IMG/VR virus record: IMGVR_UViG_3300021373_000005
Direction: 5' to 3' (one strand)
Origin: a virus
Length of the DNA: 64,000 bases
Every line of letters begins with the position of its first letter. Within the stretch, counting starts at the first letter, position 1. The position numbers and the translations under genes are program-made. Shown piece after piece: positions 10,346 through 18,152 of the stretch. The notes beneath the pieces are model-generated. The model ran no database searches, was not told the DNA's origin, and saw only the letters and a program-made list of their open reading frames with translations.

Positions 10346-10353
10346 TATAAATA
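10346..10353 (+). promoter_or_regulatory. T4-type late promoter heading the curli/cyclase cassette
   Basis: Exact TATAAATA 5 nt before ATG 10359. Confidence 0.75.
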
Positions 10354-10358
10354 ACGGT

Positions 10359-10655
10359 ATGGAAGAAATATTTCAACTAATATCTGACGTTGGTTTACCT
10401 ATTGCTGGCGCTCTTACAATGGGATTTTTTATATTCATTATTATTAAGCAAATCTTTGAAGGAATTATTGATAACATTGGTACACTAACAATGTTTGCCG
10501 AATCATTAGAGAACCGAGCAAGAACAATGTCAAATGAAATGGTCAAGATTGACCTTCTTGTTTCGAGTGCCTTAGGGTTAAACCCGGATATTGAAAGAGT
10601 GGCTCGTGCTGAAAATTTTGTTGAAGACGGAAAAGTTGACGTAAGAAGAGATTAA
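10359..10655 (+). CDS. Small membrane protein (N-terminal TM + coiled coil)
   Basis: ISDVGLPIAGALTMGFFIFIIIK; first ATG in frame at 10359; similar architecture to the next ORF. Confidence 0.75.
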   Translation: MEEIFQLISDVGLPIAGALTMGFFIFIIIKQIFEGIIDNIGTLTMFAESLENRARTMSNEMVKIDLLVSSALGLNPDIERVARAENFVEDGKVDVRRD

Positions 10656-10659
10656 AATA

Positions 10660-10932
10660 ATGGACATTGCGAATTTAGTTAATGAGTACGGCTTTCCTGC
10701 TGTGATGGTGGTAGGACTTGGGTACTTTGTATATTTTGTTTGGAGGTTTGTAAACGACAAGCTTCAGCCGGAAATTGATAAGCAACACATGGCTTTGATT
10801 AGGTTGATTGATAGAATGAGAATGCTTGACCAGGATCTTATAAGATTACAACAAAAGGTTGATGTTGTTCTCAAGTATAAAGAAATAGAAGAATTGAAGA
10901 AAAAAGGTGATAAAGATGGACAACAAGACTGA
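10660..10932 (+). CDS. Small membrane protein (N-terminal TM + coiled coil)
   Basis: VNEYGFPAVMVVGLGYFVYFVW then helical RMLDQDLIRLQQKV. Confidence 0.75.
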   Translation: MDIANLVNEYGFPAVMVVGLGYFVYFVWRFVNDKLQPEIDKQHMALIRLIDRMRMLDQDLIRLQQKVDVVLKYKEIEELKKKGDKDGQQD

Positions 10933-11434
10933 TAAAGGTTTATTGTACTTAGGATGGTTTATTGTAATAATGTATCTGTTTTTAGCAGCAGGTAAAGCAT
11001 ACGGAGAACCTATCGTACACAAATTTAAAAATCCAAGTTTCAGCGGTGTTGGAACTGGTGCTCATTATCTCACTATCGAGAATCAAGAACATTCACGTAA
11101 GAAAGCAATCAAAGATGCTCTTGAAGCTGCAGAAAGAGCTGCACAAAGAGAATTAGATAATTCTACTCTATCAAAGTTTATTCGTAACTTGGAAAGTAGA
11201 ATTTATGCTCAGTTAGCAAAACAGTTAGTAGACAATATGTTCTCTAACGATGATGCAGTAAGATTTGGATCTTTTACATTGGAAGGTTCAGTCGTAACAT
11301 ATGAAGTCATTACAAATGCAGACGGTACAGAATTTATTAAGATGACAATCGTTGATGAGAATGGAACAACAACAGTAATTGAAATCCCAGTAGGTACAGG
11401 AAACTTTGGAAGTGAGAATCCAGATGGCGGCTAA
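10916..11434 (+). CDS. csgF: Curli assembly factor CsgF-like protein
   Basis: Signal peptide, then IVHKFKNPSFSG, LSKFIRNLESRIYAQLAKQLVDNMF, G-F-L-G-VTY; immediately upstream of csgG. Confidence 0.8.
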   Translation: MDNKTDKGLLYLGWFIVIMYLFLAAGKAYGEPIVHKFKNPSFSGVGTGAHYLTIENQEHSRKKAIKDALEAAERAAQRELDNSTLSKFIRNLESRIYAQLAKQLVDNMFSNDDAVRFGSFTLEGSVVTYEVITNADGTEFIKMTIVDENGTTTVIEIPVGTGNFGSENPDGG

Positions 11435-12386
11435 ATTATTATCTGCATTTCTGTCAACATTAATTTTAGCAAGTTGTGCACAAATGCCACAATGGTCGGA
11501 AGGACCTGCGAATTGTGAATACGGACAAGGAAGATTTGCACAAGGATTTAATACCGATTTTGATAATGATGGTATTATAAATGATGATGCTTTAAGTTTT
11601 GGAAAACAACTATATACCGGTACTCGTAAGTATATTGAAACAAAACAGATTTGTATAGAACAACCTGAGGTTGTAAAGTTACCTGCATATATTGATTTAC
11701 TGAATTTACCACCTGCAGAAAATATGCCTGTGGTTGCTGTTTACAATTTTATAGATAAAACAGGTCAAAGAAAGGATTCAGTTACAGGACAAAGTTTCTC
11801 CACTGCGGTAACACAAGGTGGAACAGAATTATTAATAGACGCTCTGAAAACGGCAGGTGGTGGAACCTGGTTCAGAGTTGTAGAAAGACAAGGGATTGAT
11901 GCTCTTGTTAGAGAAAGACAGATTATTCGTTCAGGCCGTGATGAAGCGGCAAAGAAACTGGGCGAAGAACCAAAAGGTGTCGGACCATTATTATTCGCAG
12001 GAATGATAATTGAAGGAGGCATCATTGGTTATGATAGTAATGTAAAAACCGGAGGCCGCGGAGCTAGAACTTTAGGTATTAGCTTTAGCCGTCAGTATCG
12101 TCAAGATGTAGTCACAGTATCTGTGCGTGCAGTTTCGGTTCTTACAGGTGAGATATTATTAAATGTCCAAGCAAAGAAATCAATACTGAGTTACGGCTCA
12201 GGAGGAGACGTCTTCCGCTTTATAGAGCAAGGAACTCAATTGATTGAATACGAGGACGGACTTGGAAATAATGAGAGTGTGACATATGCGGTACGAACAG
12301 CAATTGAAGCTGCCGTGCTAGAGATGGTATACCAGGGCGACCAACGTGGCTTCTGGACTATTAACAATAAAATAGAGGAAGAATAA
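11424..12386 (+). CDS. csgG: Curli secretion channel CsgG-like lipoprotein
   Basis: Lipobox ILASC; PVVAVYNFIDKTGQRK, FSTAVTQGG, WFRVVERQGIDALVRERQIIRS, IIEGGIIGYDSN, NESVTYAVRTAIEAAV. Confidence 0.93.
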   Translation: MAAKLLSAFLSTLILASCAQMPQWSEGPANCEYGQGRFAQGFNTDFDNDGIINDDALSFGKQLYTGTRKYIETKQICIEQPEVVKLPAYIDLLNLPPAENMPVVAVYNFIDKTGQRKDSVTGQSFSTAVTQGGTELLIDALKTAGGGTWFRVVERQGIDALVRERQIIRSGRDEAAKKLGEEPKGVGPLLFAGMIIEGGIIGYDSNVKTGGRGARTLGISFSRQYRQDVVTVSVRAVSVLTGEILLNVQAKKSILSYGSGGDVFRFIEQGTQLIEYEDGLGNNESVTYAVRTAIEAAVLEMVYQGDQRGFWTINNKIEEE

Positions 12387-13120
12387 TGAAAAAAATATTA
12401 GGCCTATCTTTATTATGTTTATTCTCTTTCAATAGTTTAGTGTTTGCGCAAGCAACTGATGACAATGAAATCAACATCGAACAGGATGGTGATACTCTTA
12501 CTTTGTATATTGACCAATATGGTTATGGTAACAAAATAGGATTGGATAATTTCAGTTCAAGCTCAAGTGCTATGCCTATTACTGGTTCATCGTTAACATT
12601 TAACATTGACCAAATAGGAAATGAAAACTTGTTCTTTGGTACTTATGTCGGTGACAGTACAACTGTTAACGCTTTATTTACTGGAGATTCTAACTCTTGG
12701 GATTGGAACGTAGGTTATATTGGTTCATCTGATACTTCAACAATTGATGTTGATATTACTGGTGATTCAAATACTATGGACTTTGACCAAGGTTATAACG
12801 CAAGTGCTGAAAGATTAGATCTTGACTTAACAGTTATTGGAGACAGTAACATTTTTGATGTTGACATTGATGTCGACGACGCAATATGGAATATGGATAT
12901 TACTGGTGGAAGTAATAATATTAATACATTACAGAAGGACGGTGCTGAGCATGAAATTAACTTGACTCACGTTGGTTCATCTGCTGATATTGATATTAAC
13001 CAAATCAGTGGTACTTGTCCTACAGGTGTTTCTACTTGTAATGGAATAATTACTTTGGACATAGATTCTGAAAATGCGACAATTCAAATTAATCAGAAAG
13101 ACAGTTCAAACGACTCTTAA
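12386..13120 (+). CDS. Secreted curlin-like repeat (beta-solenoid) protein
   Basis: Signal peptide; NEINIEQDG, DQYGYGNKI and repeated I/T-x-G-D/G-S-N-x-x-D-x-D units at ~23-26 aa spacing. Confidence 0.7.
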   Translation: MKKILGLSLLCLFSFNSLVFAQATDDNEINIEQDGDTLTLYIDQYGYGNKIGLDNFSSSSSAMPITGSSLTFNIDQIGNENLFFGTYVGDSTTVNALFTGDSNSWDWNVGYIGSSDTSTIDVDITGDSNTMDFDQGYNASAERLDLDLTVIGDSNIFDVDIDVDDAIWNMDITGGSNNINTLQKDGAEHEINLTHVGSSADIDINQISGTCPTGVSTCNGIITLDIDSENATIQINQKDSSNDS

Positions 13121-14243
13121 TTTAATTCTGTGTTCGACACTGCTACTTACTTCGGGAGTGGCATTGTCGAGCTCGGATCCTATTGGAGCAATCGTTGAAC
13201 ATAAAGGTTCAGCTTCTTTAATTAGAGAAGCAGGTGAAGAGCTTGTTGTTTCTGGTGCATTTGTTCCAGAAGTTGAAATGAACGACACGGCCGAAACTGA
13301 GAATGGCCGAATGCTTATTCAGTTCCTTGATAAAGCAGAACTCAGTTTAACAGAAAACACAAAGGTATACATAGACAAAGTATACTACGACCCAGATCCA
13401 AGTAAATCAAAAATGACAATGCGTATGGCATTAGGCACAGCTCGATTTGCGTCTGGTCGTTTAGGAATGGTCAATAAGAATAACATTGACATTTCAACAC
13501 CCACGGCAACGGTATCAGTTCGTGGAACAGATTTCACAACAACCATTGATGAGTTAGGAAGATCACTTGTAATACTTTTGCCTGACCAATATGGTAATCC
13601 TTCAGGTATTATTGACGTAACAAACAACGGTGGGACAATAAGATTAGAGGAAGCCTACGCTGCCACAATGGTAAGTAGTCTCGATACTCCACCTACAAGA
13701 CAAATCACAATGCAAGGTATTACACCTTCTATGATTGATAATATGTTTATTGTATCACCACCTCCTGAAGTAAAGGAAGCTATTGAGGAGGAAATACAAG
13801 ATGATGCAAACCAAGACCAAGGATTACTTGATATAGATTTCTTAGAGTTTGATGGATTGGATATTGATTATCTTGAAGATGATGCATTAGAATTTTCAGA
13901 GCTTGACATTGATTATCTTGATGTTGATTTTTTAACAGACTTATTGGATGTAGTTGAAGAACTTGTAAAGACAACCGTTAAACTTGACGATAGTGCAATC
14001 GCAGGTTCTTCATTAGGGGCAGAGTTGCGTGGAGCAACTTTTGGATTAAATGCAGATTCACAATATAACATTTTTGAACAAAGTGGAAGGATTGTATTTT
14101 ATAGAGATGTAAATGGTGTTATTAATATTTCTTTAGCATCTGATGCATCCGTAAAGATTGACACTTCAGTTGACGGATACGAAGGAATTATTGACCTCAA
14201 CCAAGGACAAAATTCTATTATTATAATTAGACAAGGAGGATAA
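13074..14243 (+). CDS. FecR-domain periplasmic protein
   Basis: Signal peptide; D-x-x-ETENGRMLIQFLDKAELSLTENTKVYID, TPTATVSVRGTDF; highly acidic linker aa ~235-290. Confidence 0.8.
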   Translation: MRQFKLIRKTVQTTLNLILCSTLLLTSGVALSSSDPIGAIVEHKGSASLIREAGEELVVSGAFVPEVEMNDTAETENGRMLIQFLDKAELSLTENTKVYIDKVYYDPDPSKSKMTMRMALGTARFASGRLGMVNKNNIDISTPTATVSVRGTDFTTTIDELGRSLVILLPDQYGNPSGIIDVTNNGGTIRLEEAYAATMVSSLDTPPTRQITMQGITPSMIDNMFIVSPPPEVKEAIEEEIQDDANQDQGLLDIDFLEFDGLDIDYLEDDALEFSELDIDYLDVDFLTDLLDVVEELVKTTVKLDDSAIAGSSLGAELRGATFGLNADSQYNIFEQSGRIVFYRDVNGVINISLASDASVKIDTSVDGYEGIIDLNQGQNSIIIIRQGG

Positions 14244-14251
14244 ATAATATT

Positions 14252-15037
14252 ATGAAAGACGAAAATGAAAAAAGAGCGTGGGAGATGTTTCGTAAATCAA
14301 TCGGCCCACACATTTGGACTAGTAATGATTTATTCGTATTCTTTGGCGCAGGATTGTTATTTGGTATTCTAATGACCTTGCCATTAGTTGCTTTAGCAGA
14401 TAATGTAATAACAATAGAACAAACTGGTGATAATTTAAATTTAGAGATTCAGCAATACGGTGCTGATAACGAAATTAAAATGTTGGACCAATATTCGTAT
14501 ATTAATGCATCGTCACTTGATTTATTAGTTGTTCAATATAATACCACAGGTCTTGATAACACAATAGTATTTGATGAAATCAGTGGAACAGGTAATGAAA
14601 TTAAATTAGGTCAAGGTGTTGCTTTTGATAACACCACACAAGGTTGGAACTATGATGGTGCCGAAGGCGGTGGTCATTATATGGAAATAGATTTATATGG
14701 TAATGATAACTTTGTTGAATGGCATCAAACAAATCAAAGTGATGCAACTGACGGACATGATTTTAACTTACATGTTGCTGGGTCCGATAATTGGATAGAT
14801 GGAAGACAACAATCTTCAGGTGCAAAAGAAGCAAACATTACACTTTACAATTCAGACAATACTTTAACATTCAGACAAAAAGGTGCCAACGCAAACCATA
14901 CAGCAAATATTACTTTAGACGGTATTTACGGAACGGATGCGCTTATCAGACAAAATAGCACAACCAATCAAACATATAACTTATCAGTGGATTGTTATAC
15001 AGTTGGTGGTTGCTCAGTAAGTGTGTTACAAGAATAA
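14252..15037 (+). CDS. Second secreted curlin-like repeat protein
   Basis: Hydrophobic signal region ending LVALA; NVITIEQTGDN, QQYGADNEI, LYGNDNFVEWHQ, AGSDNWIDGRQ repeats. Confidence 0.7.
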   Translation: MKDENEKRAWEMFRKSIGPHIWTSNDLFVFFGAGLLFGILMTLPLVALADNVITIEQTGDNLNLEIQQYGADNEIKMLDQYSYINASSLDLLVVQYNTTGLDNTIVFDEISGTGNEIKLGQGVAFDNTTQGWNYDGAEGGGHYMEIDLYGNDNFVEWHQTNQSDATDGHDFNLHVAGSDNWIDGRQQSSGAKEANITLYNSDNTLTFRQKGANANHTANITLDGIYGTDALIRQNSTTNQTYNLSVDCYTVGGCSVSVLQE

Positions 15038-15345
15038 TGGAATTAGATATTTACGGAAACCCAGTAGGAACAGTATATCGAGAAGATGTATGTCCGCCTG
15101 AATTAGTTTGTGTTCCAAGAGAAACTTTAGATGAAATGTTATACGGTGTCGATATGGAATATGTCGAAGAAACTGGAACAATCCAACCAATGGGTGACGC
15201 CGAAGCAATTATTGATTTCACAACAGATTTATTATTTTTAGATATTTGGACTATCTTAAACATGGCAGTCCCTCTTACTATATTTGCTGTTTATGGTTTG
15301 ACATTATATGCAGCAGTAAAGTATATTCAAAAGAAGTTTAGTTAA
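15037..15345 (+). CDS. Small protein with C-terminal TM helix
   Basis: TAATG coupling at 15035-15039; hydrophobic C-terminus. Confidence 0.65.
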   Translation: MELDIYGNPVGTVYREDVCPPELVCVPRETLDEMLYGVDMEYVEETGTIQPMGDAEAIIDFTTDLLFLDIWTILNMAVPLTIFAVYGLTLYAAVKYIQKKFS

Positions 15346-17385
15346 ATGAAAATATTAACCAAGTGGTGGACAGTCCTTTTGACCATCACAGGATTTGCCT
15401 GCCTACATATAGCAAATCCAGATTTTATACAGAGCATAGAGTATTCTTATTATGACTCCTTACAGCAAGCGAAAGAAGTTGAAGCAATTGAAGACATTGT
15501 CCTCGTCAACATCGATGAAACAGCAATCGCTGCCGAAGGTCAGTATCCGTGGCCTCGTGGTTCTGTTGCTGATTATATACGGAACGGTCCTGACGATAGC
15601 TTATATGTCCTTAATGTAATATACTCTGAAGAAGACAGATTCAAAGAAGATCATCTACTCGCGGAAGCAATGGCTGAAAAGGCGGTTGTTCTTGCGTCCG
15701 CTCCTTCACAACAAAAATCAGGTGGAGTCGGTACCTTTGTAGGTGTTGCCACCTTTGGAGAACAAAATGAAAATTGGTTATACGAATTTCCTGGACTATT
15801 GTACCCTGTGGAATCTCTTTCTTCTTGGGCTTTTGGTGTTGGCGCCACTGTTGCTGTTCCTGACGCACCAACCGGAGTCGTGCGTAGAGCACCACTCGTG
15901 GTCAAAGCAGCCGGGAATGCCTACCCATCTCTCGCACTCGATACATTACGAGTGTACACCGGTGAACCAAGTTACCAAATGAAAGTAGGCTCCAATGGAG
16001 TCGAATGGATTCGTATGGGTCGTCAAGATCCTATCACAACAAATAGTTTCGCTGAATTACCTATTGCTTTTTGGAATCAATTTGAAACACAATCTATAAC
16101 AGAACCACTACCAAGTGGAAAGGTATTAATATTTGGTGTAACTGCAGAAGGTGTTTCTAATCCAGTTTCAACCCCAACGGGTGCAATGTATCCCCACGAA
16201 GTTCAAGCTCACCTAATTCAGACCGTCCTTTCAGGAGTTGAAATACAGATTCCCGACTGGAAGCCAATAGCCGAGCTCGGTCTTCTGGTCTTACTGAGTC
16301 TAGGTATCCTTGGAGCGGTCTATATCTTGCCCACAACTCTTGCGGTGATAATGAGTTTAATTCTGATTGGCGCCTCTTATGCATTAAGCCGTTATCTGTG
16401 GAATGATTTAATCTTTTTAGATGCGACCTTAAGTTCATTTGCTTCCTTAGTAGTTTTTGCTCAATCAAGTTTCAACAAATACTATTTAACATTTTTAGAA
16501 AAGCGCGCAATAATGAAACAATTTGCTGGTTATTGTTCGCCTGAAGTGGTTACTATTTTACAACAAAATCCTTCACTTGTCAAGGATGGAATGAAAAAAG
16601 ATGTAAGTATTGTCTTTTCGGATCTTCGAGGATTTACTCCTTTGGGTGAAAGCTTTGGAGATGACGTTAAAGGACTGACTACATTGATGAATGGTTATAT
16701 GGATGCTATTACACAACCTGTTCTAGATGCAAATGGAATGATTATCAAATACATTGGTGACGCAAGTATGCATATACATAATGCTCCGATGGAAGATGAT
16801 GACCACGCAAAGACGGCAGTAATGACAGGTATTAATATGTTACGAGCAGTGGATAAATTTAATGATAAGATTACAAAAGAGGGAAGACCTCCGATTGGTA
16901 TGGGGGCTGGTATTAATAGTGGTTTGGGTTATGTTGGTGAGATGGGTTCTACAAGTCGACATAGTTATGACATCCTTGGAGATGCTGTTTCAACGGCTGC
17001 ACGAATTGAGTCTAAATGTAAAGAATACGGATGTTTACTTTTATTAGGAGAAGAAACAGTTAGGAGATGTAATCCTGAAGAATTCCTTTTCTTAAAAGTA
17101 GATGATCTTGCGGTCAAAGGTAAATCAGTTGGTGTTGGAATATATACAGTTCTAGATTTACAAAAAGATAAATACAATAAACCAGCAGAGATGCACAAAG
17201 CAATGCATTCAAATTATCAAAAGCAAAACTTTGATAAGGCGATAAAAATATGTAATGACCTCATGGATTGCTTTGAAGGACAAATGCAAGGTTATTATAA
17301 AATGTGGATTGAGCGTTGTGAGTATATGAAAACGCAAGATCTTCCGAAGGACTGGAATGGAGTTTTCATCGCGACCACTAAGTAG
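15346..17385 (+). CDS. CHASE2-domain class III adenylate cyclase
   Basis: N-terminal TM, CHASE2 (IVLVNIDE...GQYPWPR), 3 TM helices, cyclase motifs FSDLRGFT, KYIGDA, GAGINSG, YDILGDAVSTAARIES, C-terminal WNGVFIATTK. Confidence 0.92.
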   Translation: MKILTKWWTVLLTITGFACLHIANPDFIQSIEYSYYDSLQQAKEVEAIEDIVLVNIDETAIAAEGQYPWPRGSVADYIRNGPDDSLYVLNVIYSEEDRFKEDHLLAEAMAEKAVVLASAPSQQKSGGVGTFVGVATFGEQNENWLYEFPGLLYPVESLSSWAFGVGATVAVPDAPTGVVRRAPLVVKAAGNAYPSLALDTLRVYTGEPSYQMKVGSNGVEWIRMGRQDPITTNSFAELPIAFWNQFETQSITEPLPSGKVLIFGVTAEGVSNPVSTPTGAMYPHEVQAHLIQTVLSGVEIQIPDWKPIAELGLLVLLSLGILGAVYILPTTLAVIMSLILIGASYALSRYLWNDLIFLDATLSSFASLVVFAQSSFNKYYLTFLEKRAIMKQFAGYCSPEVVTILQQNPSLVKDGMKKDVSIVFSDLRGFTPLGESFGDDVKGLTTLMNGYMDAITQPVLDANGMIIKYIGDASMHIHNAPMEDDDHAKTAVMTGINMLRAVDKFNDKITKEGRPPIGMGAGINSGLGYVGEMGSTSRHSYDILGDAVSTAARIESKCKEYGCLLLLGEETVRRCNPEEFLFLKVDDLAVKGKSVGVGIYTVLDLQKDKYNKPAEMHKAMHSNYQKQNFDKAIKICNDLMDCFEGQMQGYYKMWIERCEYMKTQDLPKDWNGVFIATTK

Positions 17386-17986
17386 TTTATTACTAGGATT
17401 TCTTTTATTAGCAGTCCCGGTCTCAGCCTTTGTTCCAAAGGACCCATTTATTTCTGAAATCTCAGAAGCACGAAAAGAACTTATCAAAATGGGGCATGCA
17501 GCTCCTTACAATCAATTAACAGTTAAGAGAGTCGTAGTTGGTAAAGCAAGAGTAATGCCAAATGGTGCTATTGTTAATCTACCACACGGTCCTGATATGG
17601 TTCCCTCTTTTTACGCCTTACAACACGACCCAAAATGGCAAGTAAAAGAAGAACATAAATACTCAATAGACCACTGGACCGAAAATGAAAAACAAATCAT
17701 AGATATACTTTTTTGGTCTGCTCAAGTACTTGATGTCTATTCAACTTATCGTGGATTAAAATATGATTGTATAACCGAAGCAAATCCATTACTACCAGAA
17801 GTACCTGAGATACATGAAATGGTAGGAATAAAACTTTTTGTTATTGGTGGACTTGGCGCTTTGTCATCTGGTGATGAAAATTTTTGGTATGGATGGAAAC
17901 TTGGCGCAGGTTTAACAACAACTGCAGTTACATTAAATAACTTTAGGCTTTTAAGAAAAGCTGAAGGTCGTTGTAATAGACGTTAA
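17357..17986 (+). CDS. Membrane protein (DUF5658-like)
   Basis: Signal peptide; LDVYSTYRGL...EANPLL motif and C-terminal hydrophobic helices. Confidence 0.55.
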   Translation: MEFSSRPLSSLLLGFLLLAVPVSAFVPKDPFISEISEARKELIKMGHAAPYNQLTVKRVVVGKARVMPNGAIVNLPHGPDMVPSFYALQHDPKWQVKEEHKYSIDHWTENEKQIIDILFWSAQVLDVYSTYRGLKYDCITEANPLLPEVPEIHEMVGIKLFVIGGLGALSSGDENFWYGWKLGAGLTTTAVTLNNFRLLRKAEGRCNRR

Positions 17987-17987
17987 G

Positions 17988-18013
17988 AAAAGGACCCATT
18001 ACTGAGTCCTTTT
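17988..18013. terminator. Bidirectional intrinsic terminator at convergent junction
   Basis: AAAAGGACCCA-TTAC-TGAGTCCTTTT; on minus strand the stem has a G-U pair and a GTAA (GNRA) loop; A/T tracts on both sides. Confidence 0.85.
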
Positions 18014-18025
18014 AGTTTTGTTGTC

Positions 18026-18139
18026 TTAACCGAGTTGAGAGATGCTGTAAACCATTACGCCCATAAAGGTCGCAACTAATAAACACTCGACACAAATCTC
18101 ACCATCTAAATTAAGACTAAGTTTTCTTAGCCTATTCAT
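18026..18139 (-). CDS. 37-aa hydrophobic micro-ORF
   Basis: Manually read MNRLRKLSLNLDGEICVECLLVATFMGVMVYSISQLG; AAGGAA SD. Confidence 0.55.
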   Translation of the reverse strand: MNRLRKLSLNLDGEICVECLLVATFMGVMVYSISQLG

Positions 18140-18152
18140 AGTAGTTCCTTTT

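Follow-up and report, generated by a model that had tools for sequence, protein, structure and literature searches.

A pelagiphage curli-type export cassette with a FecR/CHASE2 sensor-cyclase pair that may monitor the envelope

Curli-type cassettes of pelagiphages

The CsgF/CsgG operon of pelagimyophages was described by Zaragoza-Solas et al. (2020), who proposed a role in 'sibling capture' (PMC7029224), and a lysis-timing role was later proposed by Buchholz et al. (2022; PMC9004378). Wittmers et al. (2022, mSystems) reported podo- and myo-pelagiphages with genes for CsgF, CsgG, CsgA/B, FecR and adenylate cyclase, and with 'histidine kinase' genes upstream. They detected the cassette in metatranscriptomes and at each of the 65 GOV2.0 stations, FecR and the cyclase being sometimes missing from the podovirus curli regions (PMC9599517). 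The carriers of the cassette are abundant phages of SAR11 and OM43, and its purpose is acknowledged in the published survey to be a mystery. The main text of none of these three papers mentions CHASE2, and neither 'transmembrane' nor 'promoter' occurs in the text of PMC9599517. Here we analyze a cassette of this kind at positions 10,346 to 18,013 of a 64,000-nucleotide stretch of viral DNA (IMG/VR virus record IMGVR_UViG_3300021373_000005). This whole stretch, referred to below as the window, is overall that of a T4-like myophage, with genes for the major head protein, the scaffold protein, NrdA/B and ligase.

A first-pass annotation of the window had presented the cassette as novel, with reference to partial csgF/csgG sets in marine phages. 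Such sets have indeed been reported, but so has the cassette in full, with FecR and the cyclase (PMC9599517, PMC7029224, PMC9004378), and the window carries another member of the pelagiphage type VIII secretion system (T8SS)/curli cassette. In our view, it is an evenly balanced question whether this cassette combines a curli-type export module with a bacterial-type FecR/CHASE2 sensor-cyclase pair that would monitor an envelope cue. The genes of the two modules are the following, domains having been called with Pfam at E <= 0.1 and complemented with NCBIfam, PHROG and a reading of hydropathy and signal peptides:

10916..11434, + strand: CsgF homolog with a signal peptide (Pfam CsgF 1.2e-16, 127/132 profile positions)
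11424..12386, + strand: CsgG lipoprotein (Pfam CsgG 5.8e-52; lipobox L-A-S-C)
12386..13120, + strand: Cur1, secreted curlin-like acidic β-solenoid protein (Curlin_rpt 7e-4; NCBIfam CsgA 4.8e-6)
13074..14243, + strand: periplasmic FecR-domain protein (signal peptide; Pfam FecR 1.8e-9)
14252..15037, + strand: Cur2, curlin-like acidic protein with a long N-terminal signal or anchor (Curlin_rpt 0.016)
15346..17385, + strand: receptor cyclase made of a transmembrane (TM) segment, a periplasmic CHASE2 domain, ~3 TM segments, a class III cyclase domain and a C-terminal helical tail (Pfam, hydropathy)

Pfam reproduced all the domains named in the first-pass annotation, i.e. CsgF, CsgG, the two curlin-like proteins, FecR, CHASE2 with the class III cyclase and, as a borderline hit, DUF5658. 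The topology calls of that annotation match the hydropathy and signal-peptide analysis, and we agree that the parts of the cassette cover every envelope layer. The identities of the components can be taken as secure with high confidence.

Conservation of the cassette in phages

The same gene run is annotated in the Methylophilales phage Melnitz (gp99-104) and in the Pelagibacter phage HTVC008M (gp014-019), where the products are called CsgF, CsgG, curlin-associated, FecR or hypothetical, curlin or hypothetical, and adenylate cyclase. The window CsgG shares 52% identity with that of HTVC008M, 47% with that of Melnitz and up to 99% with those of IMG/VR contigs, while the cyclase gene shares 69% DNA identity with Melnitz. 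The gene order is that of the described pelagiphage cassettes: two small genes, CsgF, CsgG, a curlin-like gene, FecR, a second curlin-like gene and the cyclase. In contrast to the HTVC008M and Melnitz cassettes, that of the window runs opposite to the genes on either side, is preceded by a late promoter box of its own, and adds an optional 102-residue tail-anchored protein and a DUF5658-like gene. Two labels found in the literature, 'histidine kinase' for the upstream genes and iron regulator for FecR, are not supported in the window cassette.

To place this arrangement among related phages, 80 IMG/VR loci were collected by their CsgG and scored with tblastn and hidden Markov models (HMMs) derived from the window's proteins. 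The two small TM genes (sTM1 and sTM2), CsgF, CsgG, Cur1, FecR, Cur2 and the cyclase occur in identical order in 32/32 distinct viral loci with full flanks, and CsgG identity across the surveyed loci ranges from ~99% down to ~61%. Since all eight genes are carried by every one of the 32 loci, the rare co-occurrence of the cyclase and FecR genes with csgFG that would have refuted the first-pass reading is not observed. Since they also keep their order, the ten genes of the window cassette behave as one unit.

The FecR-domain protein and its CHASE2 partner

The AlphaFold2 model of the FecR-domain protein (predicted local distance difference test, pLDDT, 83) shows a FecR fold between a signal helix and an acidic linker of low confidence, and ends in a C-terminal domain of seven β-strands. 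Its residues 68-223 superimpose onto the C-terminal signalling domain of PupR (6ovk) with a VIA Z-score of 15.0 and a root-mean-square deviation of 2.5 Å over 135 residues. This periplasmic domain fold is the feature in common with FecR/PupR anti-sigma signalling. In contrast, the phage protein is devoid of any cytoplasmic anti-sigma domain or TM anchor, its N-terminus ahead of the fold consisting of ~33 residues that form the signal peptide, and the cassette encodes neither an extracytoplasmic function (ECF) sigma factor nor a TonB-dependent transducer. A Pfam search confined to the cassette open reading frames (ORFs), the rest of the phage genome not having been searched for them, returned no sigma factor or TonB-dependent receptor domain. 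Since it lacks the cytoplasmic anti-sigma part, the phage FecR is not a FecR-type anti-sigma factor.

The linker (window 13827-13920) is a very acidic stretch with three LDID[FY]L repeats, a motif conserved across the family. No structural match was returned for the C-terminal β-domain by the single search performed, which used the whole model and barely probed that part. The same domain was considered as a curlin-like cap and rejected (hhalign probability 2.7%, with an 18-column match at the last strand). A match to the cell-surface anchoring domain 5ix9 involves the N-terminal subdomain and was left unused, its Z-score of 6.6 being too weak. A word-index homolog search with FecR returned close phage copies only.

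As for the receptor cyclase, Pfam reports a CHASE2 domain (2.4e-29, residues 17-319) and a Guanylate_cyc domain (1.1e-16, residues 417-594), and hydrophobic segments are found at the N-terminus and at residues 306-373. CHASE2 domains are present in 63/151 sampled Alphaproteobacteria. Among 20 alphaproteobacterial CHASE2 loci examined with ~5 kb of flank, a FecR-domain ORF lies within 5 kb of CHASE2 in eight and is directly adjacent in three, and no csgG, csgF or curlin-like gene is found near CHASE2 in any of the 20. The FecR-domain gene directly adjoins a CHASE2 cyclase in locus L114 and a CHASE2 histidine kinase in locus L104.

Two such pairs have been described. In Sinorhizobium meliloti, clr, cyaD1 (SMc02176, a CHASE2 cyclase), smc02177 (a FecR-domain protein) and smc02178 bear consecutive locus tags; CyaD1 deprived of its CHASE2 domain is constitutively active, and smc02177 is not needed to perceive the plant signal (PMC5498481). 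The S. meliloti and phage loci thus have in common a CHASE2 class III cyclase encoded beside a periplasmic FecR-domain protein, CHASE2 acting in CyaD1 as an input or inhibitory domain. They differ in that the S. meliloti locus has no CsgG or curlin genes, whereas it possesses a Crp-family reader, Clr, beside the cyclase, a kind of protein found neither in the phages (0/5) nor in most SAR11 genomes. In Burkholderia and Pseudomonas aeruginosa, a FecR-domain gene lies beside a CHASE2 kinase gene in an operon to which a biofilm phenotype has been linked (PMC5192318). The Burkholderia 'BiofilmReg' operon and P. aeruginosa PA4035/PA4036 resemble the phage cassette in encoding a periplasmic FecR-domain protein beside a CHASE2 sensor. 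However, they signal through a histidine kinase and a response regulator rather than a cyclase, their FecR protein carries LysM, and they have no secretion channel. Because the FecR-CHASE2 pairing recurs in bacteria without csgG, the phage FecR is more probably a partner of the CHASE2 cyclase in the periplasm than an iron regulator, as judged from domain content and gene neighborhood.

The curli-type export module

The mature N-terminus of CsgF, following its signal peptide, displays the short motif F-K-N-P-S-F, and the csgF gene overlaps the start of csgG. A phmmer search of CsgF against PDB sequences returned no match. CsgG aligns with the E. coli CsgG structures (1.9e-46 over residues 85-319); at its constriction, Phe56 is retained while the Asn55 and Tyr51 positions are altered. 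Its lipobox is separated from the CsgG domain by an N-terminal extension of ~75 residues (window 11475-11700). The extension has two Cys, together with a D-N-D-G-I-I-N-D-D sequence resembling a calcium-binding loop.

Cur1 and Cur2 both carry signal peptides, are very acidic (isoelectric point ~4; 4.05 for Cur1), comprise ~220 residues and possess a terminal Cys pair. The two best PDB matches of the curlin-like family profile are solved curlins, 8c50 (1.9e-4) and 8enq (2.2e-3), and Cur2 is matched across loci by the Cur1/Cur2 family HMMs. The AlphaFold2 model of Cur1 is a confident β-solenoid (pLDDT 85, predicted template modeling score 0.80). For this model, VIA-align ranks Pontibacter CsgA first (Z 17.9) out of 48,161 chains, followed by generic β-helices (Z 16), and Foldseek returned no significant match. 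In HTVC008M, the counterpart of Cur2 is gp018 (L002:10638-11963), in which a PA14 domain (2.7e-6) precedes the curlin repeats (5e-8). The presence of PA14 in this protein suggests a carbohydrate-binding surface fiber.

A CsgG channel, a CsgF encoded beside it and secreted curlin-repeat subunits, all predicted from their sequences, would make this module a curli (type VIII) system. It shares with the E. coli curli system the CsgG domain with its lipobox and Phe56, CsgF, and secreted β-solenoid subunits with Q/N/G repeats. In contrast to E. coli, the phage substrates are acidic proteins of ~220 residues with a terminal Cys pair, CsgG has the ~75-residue extension and a constriction changed at the Asn55 and Tyr51 positions, and CsgE, CsgC and CsgD are lacking. 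None of these last three families was matched by Pfam in any of the ten ORFs, as first noted from the sequence, and they are also missing from alphaproteobacterial systems (PMC9599517).

Small membrane proteins, tail genes and transcription signals

The other features of the cassette are listed below:

10346..10353, + strand: T4-type late promoter box TATAAATA, 5 nt ahead of the first ATG (10359)
10359..10655, + strand: sTM1, 98 residues, N-terminal TM helix followed by a coiled-coil tail (phrog_18771 4e-23, hydropathy)
10660..10932, + strand: sTM2, 90 residues, paralog of sTM1, single N-terminal TM helix followed by a helical tail (phrog_18771 3e-26)
15037..15345, + strand: 102-residue protein anchored by a TM helix at its C-terminus, accessory gene of variable occurrence (hydropathy)
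17357..17986, + strand: 209 residues, signal peptide, borderline DUF5658 domain (Pfam 1.8e-5, 25.8 bits vs a cut-off of 25.2)
17988..18013, no strand assigned: hairpin with an A-run and a U-run on its two sides, terminator-like in both directions, between convergent genes

The sTM1 and sTM2 genes head the cassette in all 32 distinct full-flank viral loci. Their family, phrog_18771, is of unknown function, and neither protein has a Pfam family at the threshold used, save a chance-level DUF1206, or an NCBIfam match. The Atlas tool gives weak leads for sTM2, YvrJ (0.87) and Holin_BhlA (0.86, 165 shared features), the latter below its trust level, and Holin_BhlA (PF10960) is not matched by Pfam at E <= 0.1 in either protein. 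Equated by position only, sTM1 and sTM2 are the genes upstream of csgF labeled 'histidine kinase' in PMC9599517; this label is not supported for the window, the 98- and 90-residue proteins having no kinase domain (HisKA/DHp, HATPase_c). In two variants of the cassette (L089:9562-10201 and L090:4376-5263), the small TM pair does not head the operon but lies on the other strand, downstream of the cyclase. The pair is therefore linked to the cassette, but its position is not fixed, and we regard sTM1 and sTM2 as phage-specific additions. The 102-residue tail-anchored protein has no family match in Pfam, PHROG or NCBIfam, and its gene occurs in 9/32 full-flank loci, compared with 26/32 for the DUF5658-like gene.

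According to the ORF listing, the + strand ORFs form one block (10359-17986) with - strand ORFs on either side, and positive GC skew is confined to 10-18 kb in the window. These observations bear out the first-pass view of an uninterrupted operon opposite to its flanks. At the start, TATAAATA is found upstream of the orthologous first gene in 46/66 distinct related loci, mostly at -13, and its relaxed form NATAAATA in 54/66. The window has 10 copies of TATAAATA compared with 8.6 expected, a count at chance level, and all of them sit on the coding strand. Given the conservation of the box in these related loci, however, the late promoter is strongly supported comparatively. From these sequences, the cassette is probably expressed late, and the mRNA of its first gene is possibly leaderless or near-leaderless. 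At the end, the hairpin between convergent ORFs has a folding energy of -9.8 kcal/mol (z = -2.6), in agreement with a bidirectional terminator; a consensus terminator scan did not pick it up because of its loop length. An ORF of 38 codons (window 18027-18140, - strand) converges on this hairpin, and was absent from the ORF listing, the cut-off of which was 40 residues.

Cassette copies in bacterial genomes

Genome contigs were scanned with a profile seeded with a narrow FecR alignment, an earlier scan with the cyclase alone having returned no match. Eleven loci with the whole cassette were found. Nine of them (L083 and L086-L093) are AT-rich contigs binned into unrelated metagenome-assembled genomes (MAGs), and are most likely phage DNA that was mis-binned; the flanks of L093 consist of PHROG families. 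The labels of these nine MAGs are Pelagibacter, Flavobacteriaceae, Legionellales, Pirellulales, Rhodobacteraceae, Polynucleobacter and Bacteroidetes.

The loci from two Caulobacteraceae MAGs, L084 (6981-13076) and L085 (7079-13136), exhibit the order CsgF-CsgG-curlin-curlin-FecR-CHASE2 cyclase. They are devoid of the small TM pair, and FecR is placed after both curlin genes. Their flanks carry methylmalonyl-CoA mutase, acyl-CoA dehydrogenase, amidohydrolase and DsbA-like genes on contigs of 82 and 32 kb, and GC content is 0.44-0.54 in the cassette compared with 0.56-0.59 in the flanks. It has been stated in the literature that FecR and the cyclase are not part of bacterial T8SS operons, a statement that the bacterial chromosomal context of these two loci contradicts. 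Cassette-type FecR is rare, being found in 1/401 sampled Alphaproteobacteria and in 1/301 genomes of the same order. In a tree of the cyclases, the Caulobacteraceae copies, grouped with the phage contig L093, form the sister group of all the remaining phage copies, and in a quick and poorly rooted CsgG tree they nest within the phage copies. These trees, the rarity of cassette-type FecR and the lower GC content of the cassette favor a transfer from phage to bacterium, the direction towards which we lean on such sequence grounds.

Proposed function and alternatives

In the function that we propose, the CsgG lipoprotein channel with its CsgF cap would export the two Sec-exported, very acidic curlin-like proteins as its likely cargo, and these would end on the surface of the infected cell. 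The periplasmic FecR-fold protein would be paired with the CHASE2 receptor cyclase and may report to it an envelope cue, the most plausible one being the export or assembly status of curlins at CsgG. Late in infection, the cyclase would then produce a cyclic nucleotide in the cytoplasm. The mechanism by which the two modules would be coupled is offered tentatively, as the less probable part of this proposal. The idea of signalling across the envelope goes beyond the published papers and is plausible, as it fits the FecR-CHASE2 pairing and the interleaved gene order. The first-pass annotation had formulated it as a trans-envelope cyclic AMP (cAMP) conduit. Of this, the FecR-to-CHASE2 relay fits the bacterial neighborhood, whereas the cAMP part is faced with a receptor that was not found and with a Ser at the position of the catalytic Asn. 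The links that it suggested to lysis timing and superinfection are purely conjectural.

Several observations speak against a sensor-cyclase pair attached to curli export. The roles of the cyclase active-site positions are assigned by analogy with class III cyclases in general. Across 42 phage copies, no variation is seen at the two metal Asp, the specificity Lys or the Arg; in the clade of the window (14 copies), the specificity Asp is kept and the catalytic Asn is replaced by Ser, and in the other clade (28 copies, HTVC008M-like ones included) the Asn is kept and the specificity Asp is replaced by Ser. Owing to these substitutions in both clades, the activity and the product of the cyclase are uncertain. 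The cyclic nucleotide-binding family PF00027 is found in 0/5 complete or near-complete genomes of cassette-bearing phages and in only 2/61 Pelagibacteraceae genomes, and class III cyclases (PF00211) are found in only 3/61; each of these searches scored positive on control genomes. A cAMP signal would therefore be without an obvious reader, and a classical cAMP-CRP output is unlikely on these sequence data, while non-canonical cyclic-nucleotide receptors may exist. Starting from FecR, a CHASE2 neighbor is found in only 2/69 bacterial loci, indicating that the pairing is specific to a subset of FecR proteins. The kinship of the phage proteins to curlins is weak at the sequence level, and matches to the β-solenoid fold are promiscuous. 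Lastly, cells infected by Melnitz did not clump (PMC9004378).

This last result also speaks against the strongest of the alternatives, which was developed from Zaragoza-Solas et al. (2020) and Wittmers et al. (2022) and which we consider unlikely, though it deserves serious attention. Here, the cassette would build a curli-like coat for aggregation by 'sibling capture' or for a shield against superinfection, and FecR and the cyclase would merely tune its expression or export. Such a coat is in line with the complete minimal T8SS and its two curlin-like substrates with signal peptides, with an adhesin as fits the PA14 domain of the second curlin-like protein of HTVC008M, and with published interpretations (PMC7029224, PMC9599517). 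As CsgE is missing from the cassette, FecR might in a variant of this explanation serve as a periplasmic adaptor in its place. However, besides the lack of clumping in Melnitz infections, a transcriptional tuning by cAMP requires a receptor, and none was found (0/5 phages, 2/61 Pelagibacteraceae); the timing is already set by the late promoter; and the C-terminal domain of FecR has no profile similarity to curlins, as the hhalign result mentioned above indicates.

It is quite improbable, in our estimate, that the whole cassette forms a single trans-envelope machine, in which the acidic FecR-like protein would replace CsgE at the periplasmic mouth of CsgG and switch the CHASE2 cyclase. The FecR-like protein would then sense the passage or assembly of curlins, or a surface layer disturbed by contact or by a second phage, and the nucleotide, read by an unrecognized phage receptor, would set a late-infection decision in hosts without cAMP signalling of their own.

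Slightly more doubtful still is the view that two unlinked modules hitch-hike together, FecR and the cyclase being a host-takeover pair that shares an operon with the T8SS genes, for example for the manipulation of nucleotide pools or second messengers or for interference with cyclic-nucleotide defense. The FecR-CHASE2 pair does stand alone in bacteria, with no csgG in 20/20 loci, FecR and the cyclase are not constant in podovirus curli regions (PMC9599517), and two divergent types of cyclase active site occupy the same slot. However, the FecR gene lies between the two curlin genes in 32/32 loci, and the joint arrangement also occurs in the Caulobacteraceae chromosomal copy, with FecR after both curlin genes. 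The strict gene order across CsgG identities from ~99% to ~61% argues for co-function of the two sets of genes.

The weakest alternative, published as an idea by Buchholz et al. (2022; PMC9004378), is a lysis-timing device in which CsgG/CsgF would be a gated outer-membrane or pinholin-like pore, the small TM pair would be holin/antiholin-like and the sensor-cyclase would time lysis; the late promoter, the two single-TM paralogs at the cassette head in 32/32 loci with their weak Holin_BhlA lead, and the partly altered CsgG constriction speak for it, but we hold it to be highly unlikely, given that CsgG resides in the outer membrane and therefore cannot depolarize the inner one, that the curlin-like cargo genes, which a bare pore does not need, are conserved as much as the pore, that no holin is matched by Pfam at the threshold used and the Atlas score lies under the trust level, and that the Caulobacteraceae chromosomal copy keeps the rest of the cassette without the small TM pair.

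Implications

For the pelagiphage cassette, the question of its purpose is sharpened by the present analysis, which presents FecR as the probable partner of the CHASE2 cyclase in a bacterial-type sensor pair, the presumed 'kinase' genes as encoding tiny membrane proteins, and the phages and typical SAR11 genomes as having no recognizable cAMP receptor. The Caulobacteraceae chromosomal copy offers a possible non-phage setting in which the cassette could be studied.

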